A stretch of DNA of 45,822 nt, taken from the NCBI GenBank assembly GCA_049999805.1, contig JBNGIO010006142.1:113493-159314 (forward strand), written 5' to 3'. The position numbers were made by a program, and so were the translations under genes. Source of the stretch: Folioceros fuciformis. Its lineage: Eukaryota. Shown one piece after another: positions 2,540 through 42,007 of the stretch. Position 1 is the first letter of the stretch. Each line of letters starts with the position of its first letter. The notes beneath the pieces are model-generated. The model did not search any database. It was not told the DNA's origin and worked only from the letters and a program-made list of their open reading frames with translations.

Positions 2540-3214
2540 CTACTTTTGTTTGGCCTCCAGCAGCTGGACTGTCTTCGCATCCACTCCAAGTGCTTGCTGC
2601 AGCACATCCGATGGCAGCGGGGAGCCAAAGAGAGCCGCAGCTGTCTGCTGCACTCCAGGGTTTTGACTGCTCAAAGCTGCAATGGCCAACGCTGTATCGT
2701 CCCCAATGTTCTTCTGGAAATGAATGAGGCCCCTCGGGAAGACGAAAAGGTCACCCTTGTTGAGAGTCTGCTGGAACAGAGTGTTGCCATTAGAGGACAC
2801 GAATCCGACCTTCAGAGTGCCCTCCACCACGAAGAGCAGCTCGGTTGCCCTGGGGTGCGAGTGAGGAGGGTTGAGCCCGCCCACCGCGAAGTCGACGCGA
2901 GCGGCCGAGATCCCCAGCGTGTTGAGGCCCGGGAACTGGACGACGGTCGCGGCCGTAACTGCTGCCTTGAACTTGTTGGCGGTGTTTCCGGGAGTGTTCA
3001 GTCCGGAGAACTTGAAGTCTTTTGCCGCCACCTGATCTGCTGGTTTACACACGAGTCCGTTGACGGTGGGAGCGCCTGCCTGGGCAACGCAGAAGTCTTG
3101 CAGAGGGTCCTCATCGGCTGCAAAACTCAGGTGCGGCGCCCATGTGAGGAGCAGCGCGGCCAGGAATGCAACCGCCGTCAGCTCCCGATTCCACGCTCCA
3201 GCGTGACGAGCCAT
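2540..3214 (-). CDS. Germin-like protein (cupin), copy B, single exon, secreted
   Basis: Same length (675 nt) and motifs as copy A; start placed at MARHAGAW (3214) by alignment with copy A, not at the longer ORF start 3487. Confidence 0.95.
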   Translation of the reverse strand: MARHAGAWNRELTAVAFLAALLLTWAPHLSFAADEDPLQDFCVAQAGAPTVNGLVCKPADQVAAKDFKFSGLNTPGNTANKFKAAVTAATVVQFPGLNTLGISAARVDFAVGGLNPPHSHPRATELLFVVEGTLKVGFVSSNGNTLFQQTLNKGDLFVFPRGLIHFQKNIGDDTALAIAALSSQNPGVQQTAAALFGSPLPSDVLQQALGVDAKTVQLLEAKQK

Positions 3215-3470
3215 GGATGCCCCGGAACACAGTCTGGCAACGGCACAGGCGCAGCTTGCAGGATTCCACCACCTGAGGGTAAGATTGCTTGCAATTGCGA
3301 CGGAATCCCAAAACTTGCTCCCAAGAAACAAGGATTGTGTACAGCCTTCAGCTGTGTAGCACGTATCCCGATTCTGAGATCGAAATGGATGCGGAGGCAG
3401 CAGCGCTCGTGGGATGTGAGGAACTCGGGAAGCCTGCAATGTGATGAGAAAGGGCACAAGATGGGAGCCC

Positions 3471-3476
3471 TTTATA
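3471..3476 (-). promoter_or_regulatory. Putative TATA box of GLP copy B
   Basis: CTATAAAGGG on the minus strand, homologous to 1535-1540. Confidence 0.5.
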
Positions 3477-3881
3477 GGTTGGGCCATAGACTTTGGTCAG
3501 TCTCGAAGGGGAAGGCGGCAGGCAAGGAATGCGGCCGGCAGGAATGAAAGCGCGTTTGACTCCCTTGACTCCCGACCTTCTGATGCTTTCTACGTATCAC
3601 CTTAGTATGGACAACTTTGACACACCACCTTTCACGCTCACAGGACGTAACTTGAACGAACCGGTTTGTCGAGTGCCGGTCGCTGGCAACCGGCAGTTGG
3701 GAGTGCACCCTGCCCACCACCGTGTGCACGTGAGCATTATATGTACCATGAAGGCGATCAACATCGATGTGCAAAAGGAAGTTGGATACGCAGCAAAGCA
3801 AAGGAAGCTGGATGTCCATGGAGAGTTGTAGGTTATGGCCATGGCCATGATCAAGAAAAGAAGAGGCCAGATGTCCATGGA

Positions 3882-11401: not shown

Positions 11402-13573
11402 TTATTGCACCAGTGCCGCGTTGGTCACCTGGCTCAAGTTGCAAAAGACCCGCATGATGTTACTTGTGACGTCCAGTAACTGAAGGTATTCGTCAGCTCC
11501 ATCAATCAGACACTGGCAAGAAGTTTGTGATGAATCAGTGGAGAACAAAAGCTTAGGGGACTGAGAGACGAGAAAGACTTGCCGCCATACCTTATCAGCT
11601 ACAGCAAGCCTCTCGCAGATCCTAGCCTTTTGGAGGTCAGAAATCACGTCGGCGGGCACATTCACTATGGCATCGTACAGCTGCCCGTACAAGGATAACG
11701 TCATTTTGCAATGATGAGACCAGTTTCCAGACAGATGACAGAGAGAGGGCAGGAAGGAAGACCTGAGAAAATATTTTGGATGTCGCATGCCCTTCCGCTA
11801 TGGTGTCTGTTACCACTTTCTGTGCCGCGTCAAACTGGCCACTTCGACAAGCTTTCAGCAGATCTAAGATGACTTGGTTTGGGACGACCTGCACAGGGGA
11901 TCACTCAGGCAACAGTAGAGAGAGAGGATAGTGAAGAAAACAGAACGCACAGGAACGTACCGCAGACACGCTGATGATGTGTTCGCTGGAGATCAAGGAG
12001 CCGTACAAACGGGCCGCACTCTGCACAATATGGACAGGCCGTTTAGAATGGATTTAGTCCCTGTGGTAAGGTACAATTAATCCAAGACTATAATATCATG
12101 CAGACTCTATAGAGCTTACAGGTTTCAGGTCTCCCAAAAACATCTCCTGCAACATGGATGCGTACTGGGCAGCAAAAGGGGAAATGGTCTCCACTAAGCA
12201 AAGGTCCATAAGGCACCGAGTGAAAAAGAGTTTCGAACCTGTAGATAAGTGATAGCTCGTCTGAGGTCACCTTCTGACACACGTTTCAAAGTTTGTAATG
12301 CCTGCAACGAGAGGACAAAGTAACGGTCCTTAATCCATTGTTTCCCCCATACTCAGAAACTGAAGAAAACCAAAAGTAATCGCGGCAACCTCTGAATCCA
12401 GGGTGAGACCCTCTTCCTTGCAGATGTAAGAGAGTCGATTGTTCATGGTATCTTCCATTAGTGGTTTGAAACGAAACTTCGCACATCTTGATGCCAACGG
12501 ATCTATGATCCTGCAAAACAAAACATGATCTTTGATTTCATATAAATGATCGAAATGCTACCTGAATACAGTGAAATGGCTCACCTGCTGACATAGTTGC
12601 AGATGAAAATAAAGCGTGTGACCTTGTAATGCAGCTCCATTGTTCGTCTCAAGGCATTCTGTTACACTCAAGGATAGCCGACGTCACACACAGGCCTCGC
12701 ACCGAAATAACGTATGAATCAAGGTGAACACGGAGAAACATGCCACCTGAGCATCCTCTGTCATTGAATCTGCCTCATCCAGGATGATCACCTTAAAAGG
12801 TGGACAGGGGTAACCACTGCATAGGCACTTATGCACGTTAACCCCCAAGTACAAGGTAGACCAACACACCAAGTTCTGCATTGAATTGCAATACCCTATT
12901 ACAAACTTTAAACACAACTTAAAGCAGGGAGATGCCAGAGCCGAAGACAAAGAGCAGAGACAAACCTGACACTTTTCCCAACAGCAACACCTGCGAAATC
13001 CTTGATTTTCGTGCGTACTACATTGATCCCACGCTCATCACTTGCATTGAGTTCTAAAACTCGGCTCTTATAAAGCTCTGGACTGCGTTGAGGACACACA
13101 GTAATCCGAAATCAGGGCTAGTGAAGACCACGGAGCAGTCACCCCAACACACCGCTACTAACCCGAATAATTGATGGGCGATTGCCAGAGCCGTAGTAGT
13201 TTTTCCCGTGCCAGGAGGCCCATAGAAGAGCATATGCGGCAGCTGCAAACGTCCTTGATGAGAAACTCTAGCTACGGCAACCTCGTGACCTAGACACCAG
13301 CTACAAGTAAACACTCCACAGGCAACACAGTCAGGCTTACGTTGCCAGTCTCAAGAGTATTTTTGAGCACGCGAACAACTTCGTCCTGATGAGCTACGTC
13401 CTCGACTTTCCTTGGCCGGCTGATCCAAGATGCACCACAATCAGAACAATCCAGGAAATCCGCCGGAACAGGATACAACAATCACAAGAAGTATCAAGTC
13501 ATAAGACACTCGCAATTTGGCTAACTTACTACTTCTCCACCCAGTGCTGCGAGTTGCGCACCACGGGAGCCAT
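11402..13573 (-). CDS. RFC4: Replication factor C small subunit (RFC4 / yeast Rfc2 type), multi-exon
   Basis: [17 protein letters not shown], Walker [19 protein letters not shown], Walker [11 protein letters not shown] motif, C-terminal [14 protein letters not shown] introns join all exons in frame. Confidence 0.95.
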
Positions 13574-13802
13574 CTGCACCGAGAACAGGATTCAGGAATT
13601 CTGTAGACAACTCCTTCAAGCTCAACATTGATACATCGAAGTAAAGGAACCATCAAACCTTCCCGCCAACGAACGCCAACAGTTTCAGCCGTACACATGT
13701 ACTTATGTTCACAACCGAAAGTTGAGCTAGGGCACTAGCTTTCGTCTTCACAGCGGACCAGCGAACTTGCTGGTTTGCGAGATCCAGCATTGCAGAAGGA
13801 GC

Positions 13803-14743
13803 ATGTCCTCCCGCAGAGTGCTGGCCGTGGCTCTCTGGAGGCTTTTGTGTAGGAGCGGCGCAGCTGAGCAGGCTGGATCCCTCACCACTTTGAACGCCAG
13901 CAGGACGTGCCCGCATCCTCTTCCAACCGGATCATTCCACTTCTTTGGCCAGGGATCTGCTACTAAGGAAATCAGAGCTGTATCTAGAGTGAGTCGGGTT
14001 GATTCCTTTGCCTGTGCGATTTGTTCCCTCAAGTCTATGATTGCCTTCGGAAGGAATCTGATGTGTTGGAAATGGCCTTTTATGTCAGGTTGGGCAGAAC
14101 GTAGAAGTCTCGGGGCAACTCACTCACCTCCTCAGCGGAGCCAGGTGCGTGATATGTGTGAAACGTATGCTCCCCTCTGCCATCCGGCCTGCAGAGCTAA
14201 TGATAGATTTGTTGCGTATGAAGATTCTTTGGCCCAGCACTTGAGCCGCTGGCCAGGGCAGCTGCAACCGCGTGGTCAGGATCGAGAGGGCTGAGTTACC
14301 AACACTCGGGCCTTATCCCTTTCCTGGGAGTGCAGCATGACGGCATTTCTTCTTTCCGGACCATGGTGACACTGAACCAGCTGGTTCGTCATGGTAGGCA
14401 GAAGAAGAAGCGGAGTCAGCGTACCCGAGCCCTGGGTCAATGTCCTCAGAAACGAGGGGTATGTCTGCGTGTGTCAACCAGGACACCGAAGAAACCCAAT
14501 TCCGCTTTGCGTAAGATAGCTAAAGTACGACTGACCAATCGGAGTGAAGTGATTGCCTACATACCTGGAGAAGGCCATAATCTGCAGGAGCATTCGGTGG
14601 TTCTAATCAGGGGAGGAAGGGTAAAGGATCTGCCGGGAGTGAAGTACCACTGCATTCGGGGAGTGAAAGACTTACAGGGAGTGCAGGCTAGACGCCAAGG
14701 TCGATCTAAGTATGGCACCAAGAAGCCCAAAGCAACAACATGA
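13803..14743 (+). CDS. rps12: Nuclear-encoded mitochondrial ribosomal protein S12 (uS12m) with putative presequence exon; conserved core 14363-14743
   Basis: Core [12 protein letters not shown]...[25 protein letters not shown]...[13 protein letters not shown]...RSKYG is plant mitochondrial-type. Model: exon 1 13803-14144, phase-0 intron 14145-14335 (GT...GTGCAG), exon 2 14336-14743, in frame. Core is secure; the 5' exon is inferred. Confidence 0.9.
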
Positions 14744-15164
14744 TCCCCGTCATCCTAGCTCTCAGACGCATCTCCATGTCATTCCCTCTCCAGCGATAAG
14801 CAATTTGAGAATCCACTGCAGCGGTCCTGCTCTGCAGTCTTTAGCCGAAAGACATTAGAACTGCATCGCTGTGGAGTCTTCGTAATTCTCCGGCTTTCTG
14901 TGGCTTCGTGCCGACCCTGATGTAATTTTCTTCGCTCTACCGCCCCCCGATCTATTCCCTGCTTTCCGTTCATGGTTTCGAATATGTTTCCTGAGTCCTG
15001 ATTGGAGGGACTCGACGTCCTAAACACACACGAGGCAGAGCCACAAACTTCCACCTGGTTACAGAGCATGTTTCCAGTTTGAAGTATGTATCTACTTGGA
15101 ACACAGCGATATCGCTCCACGTAGATACGTAAGCGAGCGATATGTATGTTCATGATTTCACGAG

Positions 15165-17437
15165 ATGCAGAGCTGCCAGTTCCTTGGCTCCCACAGGCCG
15201 GGAGTGGAGCGGTTGGCTCGCTGCACGCGATCGTATCATTTCCCTCCCAATTTGCACGAACAGGTTCGATCCAGGCAATTTTCTGGGAAGAACTGCGCTG
15301 TTCAGAACCGGGCCAATTCTACAGGCCAGGTGCAGCCGGGTAAGAAAGGTGGTTCAGAATCCATGGCCAGCGCCAGGCTTGATGTCCAGCTCGACAACTT
15401 TCTTGCCGCCCTTCAGCTGATTGTTCCCCCTCTGTCGAGTGACCGGCACAAGGGGCAGTCTGGTGAGATTGATTGTGAGTGGTGTCATTGGATTTGAGGG
15501 CGCTTGTTTGCGTGTGGAAGCCACTCGCTCACTTTGGAAATTGCAACAGGCAGAGTTGCGGTGTTCGGAGGGTGTAGGGAGTACACCGGAGCTCCGTATT
15601 TTGCAGCCATTTCAGCTTTGAAGATGGTAATTGAGGCTGATTACCTTTGTCGTGCTCTCCGTCCCGGGAGCGAGCTCAAGTGTTCGATGGGATGTGTATC
15701 AGGGGGCAGATTTGTCACACGTTTTCTGCGCTCAGGGTGCTGCTACAGTGATCAAAAGCTACAGTCCTGAGCTGATTGTGCATCCCGTTCTACCGGAGAG
15801 CTATGGGACTTTGGTGTACGAGACCCTCTGTCTTGCGTTTGGCTACAGCAGGTTGCAGAATTCCAAGGGGTCGTCTGACGGGCTTGACTTGCAGGGAAGA
15901 AGGAACCGCGCTGGGACAGGGCATTGAGGGCATTAAGAAATGGATGTCTAACTTCAATGGCATTGTCGTAGGTCCGGGACTGGGCAGAGAGCTGTCCCTA
16001 GTGAGCCCTATTTCTCTACTCCCCTCGTGCACTTTGCTTGGTTGCTGTTGATCGGCTTTCAAAGTTTGCGCTCTTGATTGACAGATTTCTTATTTTCATG
16101 CAGTCTGTCACGCCAGCAGTTATACAGCAGGCGAAGTCACAGGATATACCGATTGTGATTGATGGGGTTGGCATTTCTATGCTTCTGCTTCAGATTTGAG
16201 ATTCAGATGTGACCAGGCTAAGCTCCGAACAGCTAACAAACGTGCTTGACTTTGCTGCGAAGGATGGATTACATGCTGTTACAAAGGACTTAAGCCTCGT
16301 TCGAGGGTACTCGCAAGTGGTTTTGACTCCCAACTACAATGAGTACAAGCGGCTGGTTGCACAGGTTCTTGGGGGCAATGTGGATGAGGGAGTAGAGAAG
16401 GATCTTCCCGAACAAGTGCGGCTTGTAGCCGATCGGTCAGTACGCTGCAGCATGTGATCATATTGGAAACTACTCGTGTCACCATGTTCTGATGGTAGCA
16501 GGTTGGGTGTCTTCGGTCAGCTTGGGGGTGACGATTCTGAAGAAAGGTCCAACAGATATCATCAGCGATGGTAAAACAGGTTTGTCCTCCTGTGCCCNNN
16601 NNNNNNNNNNNNNNNNNNNNNNNNNNNNNNNNNNNNNNNNNNNNNNNNNNNNNNNNNNNNNNNNNNNNNNNNNNNNNNNNNNNNNNNNNNNNNNNNNAGA
16701 TGAGGTATCCTCTCCCCTCAGAACTTGATCAGGAACTGTCTGCCACTAATCAGCAACGAACGTCATGTCTTTCCTCTGCAGTTGTTGAGTCCAGCTTTTT
16801 TGGGTCACCTCGAAGATGTGGTGGGCAAGGGGATGTGCTGTCAGGCAGGTTTGTGTAGTCGAAACACAGCGACAGTTCAGGCAAAAGTTTCTTCTGGGTT
16901 TCGTCATGTCAGATTGTCTGCCCGTGAACTACTTTCTTACCAGTTCGACTTGACGGTTTAAAACCACTTGTCAGTGTCTGTGTTTTTACGAGCTGGGCGA
17001 AGCAGTACCTGCAGGCAGGAGCAGGTAGTCAGGATGCGAAGAAGTTGGAAGACAGGTACCCTGGACACATCACATGCTGATATCAGTGGTCGAATTACTT
17101 AGTCCCATGTGCACCTCATCTGGTCCACATGCTGGCATCGCATTTTCGTGCAGGGTTTCTGCGAACCCAGCCATAGTCGGTAGTCTCGCAGGCTCCATTT
17201 TAGTTCGGAAAGCAGCGCAAGAAGCATTTTCAAAGCACAGGCGAGGAATGGTAACCACCGATTTGATAGAGTTTCTCGCTCTCAGGTACGACTCGCTACC
17301 ATGGTGCCTTAGTCGTTGGGCATTAGATCAGTTTAAGGGGACTGAGGGGGGCGTTCGTTGTGTTTAAATGCAATCTGTTTACGATGTGGTTTCCTTATTG
17401 GTGTAGTATGGATGAACTGTTCCCTGCGACTTGCTGA
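15165..17437 (+). CDS. ATP-dependent NAD(P)H-hydrate dehydratase (NNRD/CARKD family), multi-exon
   Basis: [80 protein letters not shown]; last exon 17407-17437. Second in-frame Met at 15363. One intron contains the N gap. Confidence 0.93.
16598..16697. other. Assembly gap (100 N) within an intron of the dehydratase gene
   Basis: Run of N; the flanking exons join in frame. Confidence 1.
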
Positions 17438-21586: not shown

Positions 21587-22326
21587 GCTTCCTGAAATTT
21601 CAAGCTCAGGCCTGCAGCAACCTCATCCTCCTCGAACTCCACACGCAGATCACGCATCCATCCCCAGACTGCTCGCCTGGAAGCACGGCACCTTTCCCGT
21701 CGATGCACTAAAAAGAAACACTATCCCGCTCAAAAAATGCCCGTTTCACACAAGCACCACACAGTCATAGGAAAGTAGCGCATGTGCATATACTTATGTA
21801 TGTGTGCACACAGAGATGGGGAGGTCCCCTGGGATGTGTAGCGTATGTATGGATGTCGGTCAATCTTGAATGTATGGATGTCTGGTGTCTACCTATGAAG
21901 TGCTGTTGGTTGGAAGCCCATCTGTTTCGTGTCTAGCAATTTAACGACGAACGACGAACGTTGACCGAACCTCAAGGGGCCTGGGGACGCGGAGCGTGCC
22001 GGGAAGGGCAGAGCGATTCCGCGTATCGTCATTCGGGCTCTATCGGGGCAGTCCGGGCGAGACGACTGAAGGAATCAGAATGTGAGACTGCGGGTTTCCG
22101 GAACTGAAGCGAGTCGCCGCTAGGCTGGCTCGGGGAAATCTCGAGCTAGCATTGCAGGATTACTGAGGCCAGAGATCTGAGGCGGGAGCGGCTGCTGACG
22201 GCAGTTTCAAGGCGATTTTGTGCGTTATCGGATTCCACAGCTGCGGTTGGTTGTAGCAGGCCTGATCTGCGCTGCCGTGGTTTTGTTTTGTGGAATTCTG
22301 GTGTAGGAGCTTGGGAAGGAGGCAGG

Positions 22327-23232
22327 ATGAGGACGAGGAACCGGAGGCACGGCGGGTGGGGGGCACGTTCTCCGTGGACGCTGGTGCTGGTTTTGTTGAT
22401 GATTTTGTCCTCGTTTCTGCTCGTGTTGCTAGTGCTGGGGATCGTAGGAGTTCCGCCAGGGTTGGATGGGACCGGGGAAGGTGCTAAGGGGGCAGAGGTG
22501 GCTCTGCATCTGCCTGGCGTGGTGAACGCGGTGGCGCATGCGCAGAAGGGTGTGCAGCATGAGCATGAGGAGGGCGGGCCGAGGAAGAGGTGGACCGAGG
22601 TTTTGTCCTGGGAGCCCAGGGCTTTCCTGTACCACAATTTTCTGACGAAGGAGGAATGCGAGCATCTGATCGGCTTGGCTTCGCCAACCATGGTGAAGTC
22701 CACAGTGGTGGATAGTTCCACGGGTCGGAGCAAGGATAGCAGGGTTAGGACGAGCTCGGGGACGTTTTTGGATAGGGGTCAGGATGCTGTGGTTTCAGAG
22801 ATTGAGCGGAGAATTGCAGAGTTCACTTTTGTGCCGGTTGAGCACGGAGAAGGGTTGCAGGTGCTGCACTATGAAGTGGGGCAGAAGTATGAGGCTCATT
22901 TCGACTACTTTCATGACACCGTCAACACCAAGAATGGTGGCCAGAGGATTGCCACTCTGCTCATGTATTTGAGTGATGTGGAGGCTGGAGGGGAAACGGT
23001 CTTCCCTGCAGCCAAGACGAATAATACTCTAGAAGGGTACGAGATGTCGGAGTGTGGACATTCGGGGCTCGCTGTGCGGCCTGTCATGGGTGATGCTTTA
23101 CTCTTTTGGAGTATGACGCCAGAAGCTCAGCTGGATCCTACCAGCTTGCATGGGGGATGTCCAGTTATCAAGGGCAACAAATGGTCGGCGACTAAGTGGA
23201 TGCATCTTCAACAGTATGCTATGCGTAATTAA
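22327..23232 (+). CDS. Prolyl 4-hydroxylase (2OG-Fe(II) dioxygenase, type II membrane anchor), single exon
   Basis: N-terminal TM segment, LSWEPRAFLYHNFL, RTSSGTFL, HFDYFHD, GGQRIATLLMYLSDV, HGGCPV, KWSATKW; first ATG at 22327. Confidence 0.95.
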   Translation: MRTRNRRHGGWGARSPWTLVLVLLMILSSFLLVLLVLGIVGVPPGLDGTGEGAKGAEVALHLPGVVNAVAHAQKGVQHEHEEGGPRKRWTEVLSWEPRAFLYHNFLTKEECEHLIGLASPTMVKSTVVDSSTGRSKDSRVRTSSGTFLDRGQDAVVSEIERRIAEFTFVPVEHGEGLQVLHYEVGQKYEAHFDYFHDTVNTKNGGQRIATLLMYLSDVEAGGETVFPAAKTNNTLEGYEMSECGHSGLAVRPVMGDALLFWSMTPEAQLDPTSLHGGCPVIKGNKWSATKWMHLQQYAMRN

Positions 23233-35304: not shown

Positions 35305-36876
35305 TGTACTTTCTCCCCCTCTTTCCGTCCATTTTCTTGGTGGGTAGTTCGCACGTCACAGGAAGCGAGGGCTGTTTTGATCGGAATTTTCCGCCTTGTA
35401 GAATGTTTGGTGATTTTTACGTTGTATCTACGTCCCTAGGTATAACTAAAGGAGGTGACCGCCTGCTGCCGGTTGCATTACACTGTTGTTACAAGTCCAT
35501 GTTTGTATGACAATGAGTGATTGCTCGTCTGGGTTTGAACCCTAGACCAGCTTGAGGGCACGGCTTCTCTGACGGCAATGTTAAATTTTACTAGTGTCCC
35601 TTGCCGGAAACTGTGTGGTCACGTACATATGTACATAAAGGGGAATTCCGATTAAGATGAGGATAAGCGCGAGGCGTTTGACGTGGAGGCCGCAACCTTT
35701 GGAAGTAGCCCATATCCGAGGTGGCGATGTCGCCGGCCAACTGGCCAGCACGAGACAAAAACGAGGAGACTGAAGAGAATCCCAGACAGAGCAAATACTG
35801 TACAGTAGAGTGCAAGTGAGAGAGTGTGTGTGGTGAGGTTATAGCGTTGTTGTCGTCCGAGAAGAGGGGGAGGCGAAGTCTGGCCTGCATGCAATTTGCT
35901 ACACGATCTGCCAGCCTCGAACTCCGGTAGCTTCGCCGCAAGCCAATGCAACTCGATTCCCACCCTGGGCTCATGGCTGGAGCCTTCTCCTGAGGCGGCG
36001 ACATGAGAAGCCCGGGTGTGGGAGGCAGGAAGCGCGGAGTGCTCATCTGGTGGGGATCCTGGTCTGGTTCCGGTGCCGGGTCGGGGTCCGGGTCCGCTCC
36101 CGTCGCCTGGTCTGCTCGCTCCTTTGCTTGCACTGTCCAGTCTGCGCCCGCGGTGACGGTGTGGCCGATTCCTTCCAGACAGGAGGCGTTGCCTCCCGCT
36201 GCGTCTGCGTCGACTTCGGCGTCGGCGTCGGAGGTACTGGAGCTGCCTGCTTGGCCTGCATTGGGACCTTCGATTCTGGCCAGGGAAGATGGAATTTGAT
36301 GGATTGCGCGCGTGGTGTGGCAGGCTAGTACGCCTCAGCGCAGCAGGAAATTACGCACAAGGCGCACACCTCGGGTGGGCACTGGTCCGAAGGTGCCGTG
36401 TCGGTTCCTCTTCCTACTTGGTGTGGCGTGTGACAGACAGTAGCGGGTCGGATTTGACATGAATCTGATATTGTGGCAGGTTCTCGACTCAATTAGCTCC
36501 TCATCTGCCGGCTTGTCGGTGGAATCCCGCATAGCCCAATCTGTTGGGCCGACCGGGAGCTGCCCGGAGCGAGCGACTGGGTCGAGGGGGAAGAAGCCGA
36601 TTTTCGTTGTCTACAGACTGCCGAACGGGCGCACGCGCGAGCTCGTCCCCAATTCTGCACAGTCTCAGCAGCATCTTCCTTCATACGCACAAGTGATAGC
36701 CTCTTCGCCCACTGGTTTCGTGAGGAAGAGATTGTCTCGCCTGCTTTGCAAATTAAGGTGTGTTACTCGGTTTTTCGAACGGATGTGACATTGGCATTGC
36801 ACAGTTTTCTTCGTCCAGGAGGAGCTTGTATCTCACTTGTCGCCTGCGTGGATCAGGCCCTTGATTCGCCAGCACC

Positions 36877-39800
36877 ATGAGACTCTCACCTAGAGAGCTG
36901 GACAAGCTCTCGTTGCACCAGGCTGGCTTCCTCGCGCAGAAAAGGCTGGCCCGTGGCTTACAGCTGAACCACCCAGAAGCTGTTGCCCTCATTGCTACCC
37001 AGGTTAGCGCACTAGGTGCAGGTATCCAGGTAGAAGGGCAAGTTGCCGATTGGAATGGACTCTTTCTTTTCACGTTGACTGGCGGATTGGTGATATCGAT
37101 GTGCCTCATGGTCGTAGATCCTGGAGTTTATTCGGGATGGCAAGTCCGTCGCAGAGCTGATGGACACAGGACGACAATTATTGGGAAGGTATGCGCTCGC
37201 CCTATCTCAATTGGGAAGTGCTCCTTAGTGCTGCTGTCTACTCTGAACTTGACGTTATTCTGAATTTCAGGAGGCAAGTTTTGCCGGGGGTCAGGCATCT
37301 TCTAGAAACGGTGCAGGTATGCACAGCTTGGATTTGCGACGTCTTGTTAGAGCGTGCCTGTGCCATGGTCATGGTTTTTAAAATGACTCCCGTTTCAGGT
37401 GGAGGGAACATTTCCAGATGGGACCAAGCTGGTTACCATCCACAATCCTATTGCAAGGGAGGGTGGGGATCTCGAGCTTGCTTTGTATGGATCCTTTCTA
37501 CCAGGTCATGGCTGGATCCTTTTTCCTGTTGGACCTAATTCCACTTAAAGTTCGTCTACTGAACTCTTTTGTCCTTATTTTGGTTTCAGTTCCATCTCAG
37601 GACATTTTTCCTGTGTCAGAGGATACGCTGGAACCTGGTCGGGTAGTTCCAAAGCCTGGTCGTATTCTGATAAATGAACATAGAGAATGCGTAATTATTA
37701 AGGTTATCAATACAGCTGACCGCCCAATACAGGTCATTTCTCTTTTCTTCATACTGTGGAATCTCCTTGGACGATCATGTGCACCATTTTCCCAGAAGCT
37801 TTGACTTTTTGTTTCTTTCCTTTCAGGTGGGCAGTCATTACCATTTCATTGAGAGCAATCCTTATCTTATTTTCGATCGGGAAAGGGCTTATGGAAAGCG
37901 TTTAAACGTTCTGGCTGGTACTGCTGTCCGGTTTGAGGTATATTCCTTTTTCCTGTTTTATGGTCTCCCAGGGAGGAAGCAGTTGTTTGTAGGACGACGT
38001 TTCTGTGTTGAATGACCTAGCAATAGGCCTGAACGTAAGAGATTGGGGTCTGTTGAATTGATGCAGCCAGGTGACGAGAAATCAGTAGTTCTTGTCAGCA
38101 TTGGTGGCAAGAAAGTAATCCAGGGTGGTAATGGGTTAGCAAAAGGCCGTGTGGACAAATCTCATCTTCCTTCAATAATGCAGAGGGTTACCTCCAGAAA
38201 CTTTGGCCACAAGAAGCAAGCCGATGCCTGGTATGTGTAAAACCTGTGGCTGTCTGGTGTCGTGCACTGTCTCAAAACGTAGCCTGTCCTCCATTTTTGC
38301 TCTTACTCTATATGTTTAAATCGGAAAATGTTGATACTATTGTGTCTGCAGGATTGGTATTTCTGGGAAAGACGAAAAAGCAACTTGCTGGGTGTCTCGG
38401 GAACAGTATTCCCATCTGTTTGGTCCAACAACTGGTGACAAAGTGAGGCTGGGGGACACTGACCTTTACGCAGAGGTGGAGAAGGACTTTGCCATCTACG
38501 GGGATGAATGTAAATTTGGCGGAGGTAAGGTCCTTAGGGATGGCATGGGACAGGCTTGTGGATACACTGCAGCTATGACACTAGATGTTGCAATTATCAA
38601 TGCTCTCGTTATAGACTTCACGGGAATATACAAGGCAGACATTGGTATTAAAAGAGGGAATATAGTAGGAATAGGGAAAGCAGGTAATCCGGATGTGATG
38701 GATGGCGTTTCTGAGAACATGATTGTTGGTGTAAGTTGTGATCTTCAACGTCTTCTTTTTTCCCGTTTTTATGGTGAGTGGTCACTGAATATGGTGGCTA
38801 CGTTTTGACATTGAACGTTTGCCTCATGAAGGTCAACACTGAAGTGATAGCAGCAGAAGGATCAATTCTTACTGCTGGAGGTATCGATACTCACGTGCAC
38901 TTCATATGCCCACAGCTTGTGGAAGCAGCAATCTCCGCAGGTGAGATTAGAAGAAACTCAGATATGTTTTCGAGTCTGTGGCTCTCCTCACACTCACTCC
39001 CTGCACTGGAGTATATGGCTCCTGGAGACCGCTGAATACGGTGGATTTGGATTCATTTCTTCACCCTCCAACAATATCGTAGCCCTTCAACGGTTTAATT
39101 CTAGATTTGTGCAGGCTTAACAACATTGCTCGGTGGAGGAACAGGGCCAGCACATGGGACAGCTGCAACGACTTGTACACCTGCTCCAGAACAAATGCGT
39201 TTAATGCTTCGTGCAACAGATGACATTCCTCTGAACTTTGGGTTTACAGGAAAGGTGAATGAATAGCCTGGAAGTATAGTCGTGTTTTTGGTGTGTAGAC
39301 TCGTTTCAAAGAAACACTGACAGCAATAACGTTTCAGGGTAACTCTGCAAAACCGGAAGGGCTTGCTGATATTATCAGAGCTGGTGCCGTTGGTCTCAAG
39401 CTGCATGAAGACTGGGGCACAACACCGTCTGCTATCGAAAACTGTTTGTCAGTTGCCGATGAATTTGACGTGCAGGTCGGTCATGACTGAGTGGGGGCAC
39501 GATGTTTTGATTCGTGATCCTTGCGAGCTACTCTTGTTGACTTCCGTATGATCTGTGTACTGAAACTTGAAGGTAACGATCCACACCGACACTCTTAATG
39601 AGTCGGGATGCGTGGAGCAGTCAGTTGCAGCTTTTGGAGGTCGAACCATTCACACGTACCACAGGTGAGTCTTCCGTCGATTTTGTGTATGAAAGCCTTC
39701 CGTCGATTTCGTGTGAAACATGTTGCAGCTTGAACTGCCACACATATGCTTCTGAGTCGGGCGAGCGCGTTTGCTTTGAAAAGCTGATGTGATTGTGCCC

Positions 39801-41176
39801 TCAACAGTGAGGGAGCGGGTGGAGGACATGCACCAGACATCATGATGGTTTGCGGTTTACCGAATGTCCTTCCATCATCAACCAACCCAACCAGGCCCTA
39901 TACAGTCAATACGATTGATGAACATATCGACATGCTTGTAAGTATGTTTGATGTGCTTAGTACGTCTCTCCGGCCTGTTCGTGTGATTCAAGGTTCTTGG
40001 CTTTGTAGAAATTCATTCCGGCTCATGGACGTTTGTGGTTTTTTTATGTTCAGATGGTTTGTCATCACCTCAACAAGAGCATAGCAGAAGACGTCGCATT
40101 CGCAGAGTCGAGGATCCGTGGTGAGACGATAGCTGCAGAGGACATCCTTCACGACATGGGCGCCATCAGCATGATGTCATCTGATTCACAAGCCATGGGT
40201 CGCATAGGAGAGGTTGCATAGGAGCCCTAAATTGTCTGTGCAGCCAGCTCGAGGAAAACTCGTTATGTCGAGGTCTGCTCATCAGTTTGACATTGTTTCA
40301 GGTTATAACGCGCACGTGGCAGACGGCACATAAAATGAAGCAACAACGGGGACAGCTGCACGAAGCATCAGCTGATGACAATGATAATATGAGGATCAAG
40401 CGTTACATAGCGAAATATACTATTAATCCTGCTATTGCACATGGCTTTTCCGAGCTTGTTGGATCTGTTGAGGTGCGTACACCACTTGTTGAGCTTGATT
40501 TAGTGTGTGTCTCCACTTGCCTTATAAATAGGAATGAACATACGTTTTGTGAGTGCAGGTCGGGAAGCTTGCCGATTTAGTCTTGTGGAAACCCGCTTTC
40601 TTCGGGACTAAACCGGAAATGGTCATAAAGGGAGGAGTTATTGCCTGGGCTCAAATGGGTGATGCCAATGCAAGCATTCCAACTCCGGAACCTGTATGTG
40701 TCATTGTGCTTCGGCCTATTCGAAATGACGTCTTGATTCTCGTGGTCTCTATACTGCAGACGCTAATCTCTTGTTGATGAGACACATTGCAACAGATTTT
40801 GATGAGGCCAATGTTTGGAGCTTTGGGCAAGGCTGGGAACTCACATTCAATCGCATTTGTTAGCAAGGTATGGCTTATGTCTTGAACATTTGGGTCTGGT
40901 TGCAGTCAGGTATTTGGCGTAGGAATGCTGAACAGAAACTTGGTCATTCTGCAGGCCGCCAAGTTGTCCAATGTGAAAGCGGAATACGGACTTCAGAAGC
41001 GTGTGGAGGAAATACAGAATGTTAGAAATTTAACGAAAAAGGACATGAAGCTGAATGACTTAACGCCCGAAATTGTTATCGACCACGAACATTACACTGT
41101 ATCCGCAGATGGAGTGATGCTTACTTGCCACCCTGCTGCCACCCTGCCACTGACACAGAATTATTTTCTTTTCTAG
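36877..41176 (+). CDS. URE: Urease (single-chain plant type), 18 exons
   Basis: [48 protein letters not shown] (carbamylated Lys), [38 protein letters not shown], ends NYFLF*; 17 GT-AG introns traced in frame. Confidence 0.98.
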
Positions 41177-41194
41177 TGTAAGGATTCTGTTGCG

Positions 41195-42007
41195 ATGAGA
41201 ACTGATGCGGAGGATCGTACTGTTCTGGACGAAACTTCTCCTCCGGAGGGCCAAGGACCAGTTACTGAGGTACCTCATCCTGTAATGGGTACCTCGGCTA
41301 TAGCAAGGGGTGACAGTGACTTCAAACATCTTCCATTGGATTGGAGCGTATGGCAGCTGCTTGATTCCCTGCTACCAACAGGTGGATTTGCCCATTCCTA
41401 TGGCCTGGAGGTTGCTGTACAAACTCATCTGGTGGCGGATTCTAACTCACTGGAAGATTTCGTCACATCATCTTTGGAAGGAGTAGGTGCCCTGATGCTG
41501 CCTTTTATTTATTGTGCTCACAAGCAGCCAAAGACGGAGTCGTGGATTCAGTTAGACCAACTGTTTCATGCAACACTGACAAACCAGGTTGCAAGAAAGG
41601 CATCGTTGGCTCAAGGCGCTGCCCTTCTGCGAGTGGCTGGCACGGTGTTTGTAAATATTGCAGAGTTGCTGAACATACGTGCAACTGCTAGGGAGCCCGG
41701 GATAGTGCATGTCCATTACGCACCCATGTATGGAGTTTTATGTGGTCTTTTAGGATGGGATTCCATGACTTCCCAACGATCTTTCTTGTTTTTAACACTC
41801 AGGGATATTCTGTCAGCTGGGACGCGGTTGAATGTGGTAGGTCCTTTGGAATCAGCGTTCCTGCAGCACCGACTCTCTTCAGTTGCAGAAGCCGTCCTGA
41901 AGAAGTATGCAAATCGGCCAGTTGAAGACGCACATCAAACGTCACCTCTACTGGATACAGTGCAGGGCTGCCATTCTTATCTATTTTCAAGGCTCTTTGG
42001 CTCTTAG
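41195..42007 (+). CDS. UREF: Urease accessory protein UreF, single coding exon
   Basis: WQLLDSLLPTGGFAHSYGLE, ARKASLAQG, RDILSAGTRLNVVGPL, C-terminal HSYLFSRLFGS; alternative start at 41285. Confidence 0.95.
   Translation: MRTDAEDRTVLDETSPPEGQGPVTEVPHPVMGTSAIARGDSDFKHLPLDWSVWQLLDSLLPTGGFAHSYGLEVAVQTHLVADSNSLEDFVTSSLEGVGALMLPFIYCAHKQPKTESWIQLDQLFHATLTNQVARKASLAQGAALLRVAGTVFVNIAELLNIRATAREPGIVHVHYAPMYGVLCGLLGWDSMTSQRSFLFLTLRDILSAGTRLNVVGPLESAFLQHRLSSVAEAVLKKYANRPVEDAHQTSPLLDTVQGCHSYLFSRLFGS

Follow-up and report, generated by a model that had tools for sequence, protein, structure and literature searches.

The window analysed here, a stretch of 45,822 nucleotides of the Folioceros fuciformis contig C6142, contains an rps12 gene of plant mitochondrial type between spliced nuclear genes, an RFC-like AAA+ gene and an NAD(P)HX dehydratase gene. 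The question raised by this locus is whether the gene is a working transfer from the mitochondrion to the nucleus, as the initial annotation proposed, or an inert NUMT. In our study, the rps12 gene was found to be very probably a working and old transfer, because its transcript is spliced, its frame is intact, its GC3 is nuclear-like, and the tree and the hornwort context agree with this reading.

Transcript and gene model

The transcript of rps12 was found as one RNA contig of 1038 nucleotides in the run X1, with 0 mismatches to the window. Its exons were present at 13756–13988, 14089–14144, and 14224–14972, and their lengths total exactly 1038 nucleotides. Of the words sampled from the region, 72% were present in the public run X1. 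Its comparison over 12900–16500 gave one contig per gene for three adjacent genes. All 10 joints listed for X1 in this interval had GT-AG or CT-AC ends; the joints are spliceosomal and the run therefore represents RNA. The expression evidence for rps12 consists of one assembled contig from one of the three runs compared, in one study. The runs X2 and X3 came from other organisms; X2 matched nowhere and X3 matched the two neighbour genes only, which is neutral for rps12. The features of the locus are as follows.

13576–13755, no strand: intergenic region of about 180 nucleotides between the rps12 transcript and the divergent RFC-like transcript; it likely contains the promoter or promoters, its function being inferred.
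13756–13802, plus strand: 5′ UTR from the start of the RNA contig, although transcription may begin before this point; free of ATG codons.
13803–13988, plus strand: coding part of exon 1, extension residues 1–62, from the RNA contig; Arg/Leu/Ala/Ser-rich start; targeting signal predicted from composition only.
13989–14088, plus strand: intron 1, 100 nucleotides, GT-AG, phase 0; joint 13988/14089 of run X1.
14089–14144, plus strand: exon 2, 56 nucleotides, within the extension, from the RNA contig.
14145–14223, plus strand: intron 2, 79 nucleotides, GT-AG, AAG acceptor, phase 2; joint of run X1 recorded as 14142/14222 'cut +2'.
14224–14362, plus strand: start of exon 3, the last 46 codons of the extension, continuous with the S12 core; contains the unused acceptor-like site 14335.
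14363–14743, plus strand: uS12m core, 126 amino acids and stop, intronless, ancestral Met retained; from profiles, PDB matches, and trees.
14744–14972, plus strand: 3′ UTR to the end of the RNA contig.

The first ATG of the transcript, at 13803, opened a frame of 253 amino acids, which consisted of a 127-residue N-terminal extension followed by the 126-residue core. The open frame at 14222–14743 contained the complete S12. The two introns (100 and 79 nucleotides) agree in length with the eight neighbouring introns, which ranged from 76 to 110 nucleotides.

The initial annotation had placed an upstream exon from 13803 and joined it to the core exon by a phase-0 intron with a 14144/14336 junction. 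The start of this exon was retained, together with its donor at 14145 and its beginning, in which four Arg but not a single acidic residue precede position 22, but nucleotides 13989–14088 were spliced out of it, from a strong donor at 13989 that the two-exon model had overlooked. The residues HDGISSFRT were present in frame before the core as annotated. The junction itself had to be replaced: the RNA contig joined 14144 to 14224, and the second intron was of phase 2 and ended 139 nucleotides upstream of the ancestral ATG. The two-exon form (13803–14144 joined to 14336, 249 amino acids) is almost certainly not the main transcript, since its open frame, its strong-looking 14335 acceptor and the loss of rare isoforms from contigs are set against a sole RNA contig that has other joints and reads straight across 14335, and since it needs intron 1 to be retained beside an intron of 191 nucleotides, against the 10 observed introns of 76–110 nucleotides. 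A minor isoform through the 14336 acceptor may exist; with intron 1 spliced out, this acceptor leads out of frame and gives a truncated product of 91 amino acids that lacks the S12 core. The corrected three-exon model of rps12 is supported by RNA.

Identity and phylogeny of the S12 core

The intact plant-mitochondrial-type rps12 that had been annotated was confirmed as 126 codons at 14363–14743. The core matched PF00164 with an E-value of 1e-39 and 135 bits against a cut-off of 22.3, and TIGR00981 with 211 bits against a cut-off of 113, over the model positions 1–124. The best PDB matches were plant uS12m chains (223 and 220 bits), whereas the top-scoring bacterial chain reached 180 bits and a chloroplast chain 170 bits. 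The ESM Atlas gave uS12 clusters only. The GC content of the core was 0.52 and its GC3 was 0.50–0.51, within the 0.42–0.73 of the seven in-frame nuclear coding stretches of the window (the prolyl hydroxylase stretch, cut out of frame, was excluded), in agreement with the earlier observation of about 50% GC like that of the neighbours.

A tree of 53 rows was composed of the window gene, 32 selected proteins, and 20 bacterial loci out of a set of 80. In this tree, the rps12 core was found inside the streptophyte mitochondrial S12 clade with a support of 100/99, and its nearest neighbour was the Logan protein P0003 (89/90, not starred). A tree of 26 rows, whose bootstrap was not fully settled, included the cyanobacterial-like locus L130 as a stand-in for plastid sequence; it gave the streptophyte mitochondrial grouping again with 100/99 and left the pairing with P0003 unresolved. 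Constraining rps12 together with L130 was rejected (p-AU 5.5e-5). The outgroup scans covered 1/64 parts each of the genome and the metagenome contigs. The genome loci carried bacterial titles, identity among the metagenome loci reached 78% at most, and no locus was recognised as plant mitochondrial. By its sequence, the core is of the plant mitochondrial S12 type and not of the plastid/cyanobacterial or other bacterial type.

The protein identity of the core to any compared sequence reached a maximum of 86%, in P0003. Both proteins contained RT before MVTL and three residues missing from 12 of the 12 aligned mitochondrial-type rows, which makes P0003 a probable orthologue of rps12. The core was devoid of stops and kept the conserved residue at positions that differ by editing-type changes when the genomic mitochondrial sequences of other plants are translated. 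The same conserved residues were present in the mtDNA copies of Marchantia and Andreaea, and hence do not discriminate a cDNA origin. In the 87-Mb assembly, rps12 was the sole bacterial-type S12 found with a protein query (1/1 candidates), and the PF00164 search added only a cytosolic S23 gene (3/3 candidates).

N-terminal extension

The extension was spread over three exons and its border with the S12 core was free of introns. It contained 11 Arg in all, and its first 30 residues included 4 K+R, 1 D+E, and 6 S+T. In eight named N-extended S12 proteins, the extensions ranged from 70 to 244 amino acids, with 4–7 K+R and 0–2 D+E in the first 30 residues, similar to the rps12 leader. The N-terminal amphipathic moment was not above that of shuffled sequences, of which 615 of 2000 reached it. 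From its composition, the 127-residue leader is predicted to direct mitochondrial import.

The Arg two residues before the ancestral Met had been read as an R-2 cleavage site. The Arg is one of the 11, two R-3-like motifs were also present in the extension, and none of the eight named N-extended proteins contained Arg at -2 with the same cut, although this cut could be shifted by one residue in proteins that have lost the ancestral Met. Only P0003 likewise contained RT before MVTL. The R-2 site is a weak candidate. One of the R-3-like motifs was located at extension residue 102.

A single acquired targeting exon, as first proposed, was not found: beside the three exons and the intronless border, no donor gene was detected. 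DNA and protein searches of the own genome for a presequence donor gave self-matches only, the word search with the exon-3 part found no donor among 71 candidates, and the BLAST comparison with 279 proteins gave nothing better than an E-value of 0.7. The extension was also unlike the rps7 locus, the nad7 locus, and the rest of the window. Four HMMER matches to exon 1 among 1.84 billion representatives were tandem-repeat proteins whose scores were summed over repeats, and were rejected. A Pfam CEBP_ZZ match to the two-exon model (E 0.13, residues 68–101) was mostly translated intron 1 and was likewise rejected. A borrowed presequence is marked by a homologous donor N-terminus or by a border intron, and neither was seen in these searches, although an old donor could be too diverged. 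Exon shuffling was thus not supported. The extension may derive from non-coding DNA beside the gene, or its source may be a donor diverged past detection.

Genomic setting

The rps12 gene was arranged head-to-head with the RFC-like gene (ATG at 13573, minus strand), with the two ATGs 229 nucleotides apart, and the NAD(P)HX dehydratase gene was located downstream. The name RFC is our reading of the translated exons; Pfam assigned AAA. No RNA depth was found in the bin separating the two divergent genes in the run X1. About 180 nucleotides of untranscribed DNA within 13574–13802 possibly serve both genes as a common promoter; in so compact a genome, the arrangement may be due to chance. The promoter motifs site II, telo-box, and TATA were absent from 13574–13802. 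No flanking mitochondrial genes were seen beside rps12.

Comparison with known nuclear rps12 genes

The transfer of rps12 is not surprising; it has been published since 1992 and is recurrent in several plant groups. The nuclear rps12 of Oenothera (Grohmann, Brennicke and Schuster 1992, as cited in an excerpt of PMC1543663) represents the same gene and the same move from the mitochondrion to the nucleus, in an angiosperm and presumably as an independent event. In Zostera marina, the mitochondrial rps12 is lost and the nuclear gene contains two exons of 133 and 377 bp, according to an excerpt of PMC5435185. The Zostera gene is similar to the rps12 described here in its extended coding sequence and in that an intron precedes an uninterrupted S12 exon. 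However, exon 2 of Zostera matches the mitochondrial gene, whereas the rps12 of Folioceros was divided into three exons and its extension continued into the core without an intervening intron.

The S12 proteins of Rosa/Fragaria, Punica, Papaver, Geraniaceae, Silene, and Rhododendron likewise contained a long extension (70–244 amino acids) before the core. The N-extended database proteins were taken as nuclear from their extensions and, mostly, from their long contigs. In Rosaceae (CPN60-like) and Punica (processing peptidase beta, PF00675), the names and Pfam point to a borrowed presequence, whereas no donor was detectable here. The database names of the Punica and Rosaceae S12 proteins (P0165, P0174) apparently follow these borrowed N-terminal parts. 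PMC3325193 and PMC6971862, seen as excerpts, served as background only. Among the listings, abstract openings and excerpts searched, a description of the nuclear rps12 of hornworts was not found. The gene is very likely present in hornwort genome annotations.

Among seed-free plants, Selaginella moellendorffii contained an S12 protein (LOC9649666 / XP_002985288.2, P0171) with an extension of about 113 amino acids and a core 81% identical. An excerpt of PMC5654404 reports no ribosomal protein genes in the Selaginella mtDNA. The Selaginella extension was dissimilar to that of Folioceros, and the ancestral Met was lost in Selaginella. Although the tree did not reject the constraint of rps12 with the Selaginella copy (p-AU 0.51), the unlike extensions and the loss of the Met suggest, at the level of sequence comparison, that the two nuclear genes arose by separate transfers. 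Unrelated extensions are treated as evidence for separate transfers in PMC1543663 (excerpt), where mitochondrial pseudogenes are also described to persist long after transfer. It is very unlikely that both nuclear genes derive from one very early transfer, after which both copies coexisted during early land-plant evolution and most lineages later dropped the nuclear one. The p-AU value allows such an origin, as does Val63, which was common to rps12, P0003, and Selaginella against 12 of the 12 aligned mitochondrial-type rows, but the two extensions, being unrelated, speak against it. Much likelier than a transfer shared with Selaginella would be one event in the ancestor of hornworts, in which non-coding DNA next to a divergent housekeeping promoter supplied the leader.

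Probable transfer of mitochondrial genes in hornworts

In the published hornwort mitogenomes, rps12, rps7, and nad7 are pseudogenes in four of the four entries of Table 2 of PMC6082510 (excerpt), including Leiosporoceros, which is called there the sister to all other hornworts. The reduced hornwort mitogenome has already been ascribed to endosymbiotic gene transfer (PMC7049729, excerpt). A nuclear rps12 is predicted by these mitochondrial pseudogenes, and this predicted counterpart is now provided with an RNA-supported gene model. The gene was located in the nucleus, its frame was intact, transcribed, and spliced, and it contained an N-terminal extension. With at most 86% protein identity and GC3 in the nuclear range, it is not a fresh copy.

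The copy of rps12 would have left the mitochondrion early, probably before the living hornworts diverged. It would have come to lie head-to-head with the RFC-like gene, about 180 nucleotides off, and gained a promoter, 5′ coding sequence, and two spliceosomal introns. Cytosolic synthesis, import by an N-terminal signal, cleavage, and assembly of the mitoribosome are established plant biology. The precursor would accordingly be made in the cytosol, imported via TOM/TIM, and cut by the processing peptidase, probably near the ancestral Met. The mature S12 would then enter the small mitoribosomal subunit, while the mitochondrial gene would decay to a pseudogene. The nuclear rps12 has likely replaced a dead mitochondrial copy.

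A transition state, in which the mitochondrial rps12 is still working and the expressed nuclear copy is redundant or secondary, appears very improbable. No match of cob/petB was found in the assembly, and cox1 was found only as a degraded fragment in a nuclear contig, so the organelle contigs are seemingly missing and the loss is predicted from the published hornwort mitogenomes, which vary in the retention of rpl2, rps13, rps14, and rps19 (PMC6082510, excerpt). Against this state, the pseudogene is present in all four of those mitogenomes, and the nuclear copy looks old, with its two introns, its nuclear GC3, and its distance from P0003. Use of the product in plastids, in addition to or instead of mitochondria, is highly unlikely. 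The long Ser/Ala-rich extension and its unremarkable amphipathic moment would fit plastid targeting, but the core is of mitochondrial type, and plastid rps12 is present in three of the three hornwort plastomes (Table 1 of PMC6082510, excerpt), which leaves no gap to fill.

The reading as an inert NUMT or a transcribed pseudogene, with an upstream frame by chance, is largely refuted and exceedingly improbable. The degraded cox1 fragment shows that NUMTs are present in this genome, and no homologue of the extension was detected; however, two introns were removed from the rps12 transcript and its first ATG was in frame through 253 codons. Moreover, the core without stops, its conserved residues at editing-type positions, the absence of flanking mitochondrial genes, and the limited identity to the compared mitochondrial copies (at the protein level, with no hornwort mtDNA among them) all argue against a NUMT. 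The working transfer of the initial annotation was in this respect upheld. The cox1 fragment (L005:1380-1870, contig C1915), located among nuclear genes, is an ordinary NUMT, in contrast to rps12.

Two further mitochondrial-type genes were found in the nuclear assembly. The core of the rps7 gene (L010:1059-1926, contig C6317) was intronless. Upstream of it, an exon of 40 codons was predicted, the first 30 of which include 4 K+R and 1 D+E; joined across an intron of 121 nucleotides, it would give a frame of 249 amino acids. The rps7 leader was unrelated to that of rps12. The nad7 gene (L173:1022-2316, contig C6283) contained 367 intronless codons after an assembly gap, with a GC3 of 0.78. An Ala/Leu/Arg-rich frame was present upstream of this gap. 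The hornwort mitochondrial nad7 pseudogene presumably contains introns; if so, the nuclear nad7 would be better evidence of RNA-mediated transfer than rps12. Together with rps12, these genes offer specific material with which the wave of mitochondrial gene loss in hornworts can be dated and dissected, and with which a borrowed origin of leaders can be weighed against one from scratch. The assembly also contained an intron-split LCIB gene (L008/L009, contig C1919), a gene reported in hornworts and in no other plant genome according to an excerpt of PMC8075897. As marker genes, LCIB and the nuclear nad7 and rps7 indicate that the genome is likely that of a hornwort.

Other genes in the window

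The other genes of the window were named from their translations. Two near-identical tandem germin-like (cupin) genes were found at 603–1370 and 2540–3496 on the minus strand. A frame similar to prolyl 4-hydroxylase, of about 360 codons, was found at 22150–23232 on the minus strand; it had no evident intron in this intron-rich genome and is possibly a retrocopy. At 36865–42007 on the plus strand, a urease gene was directly followed by a single-exon UreF-like accessory gene, which may form a small functional cluster.
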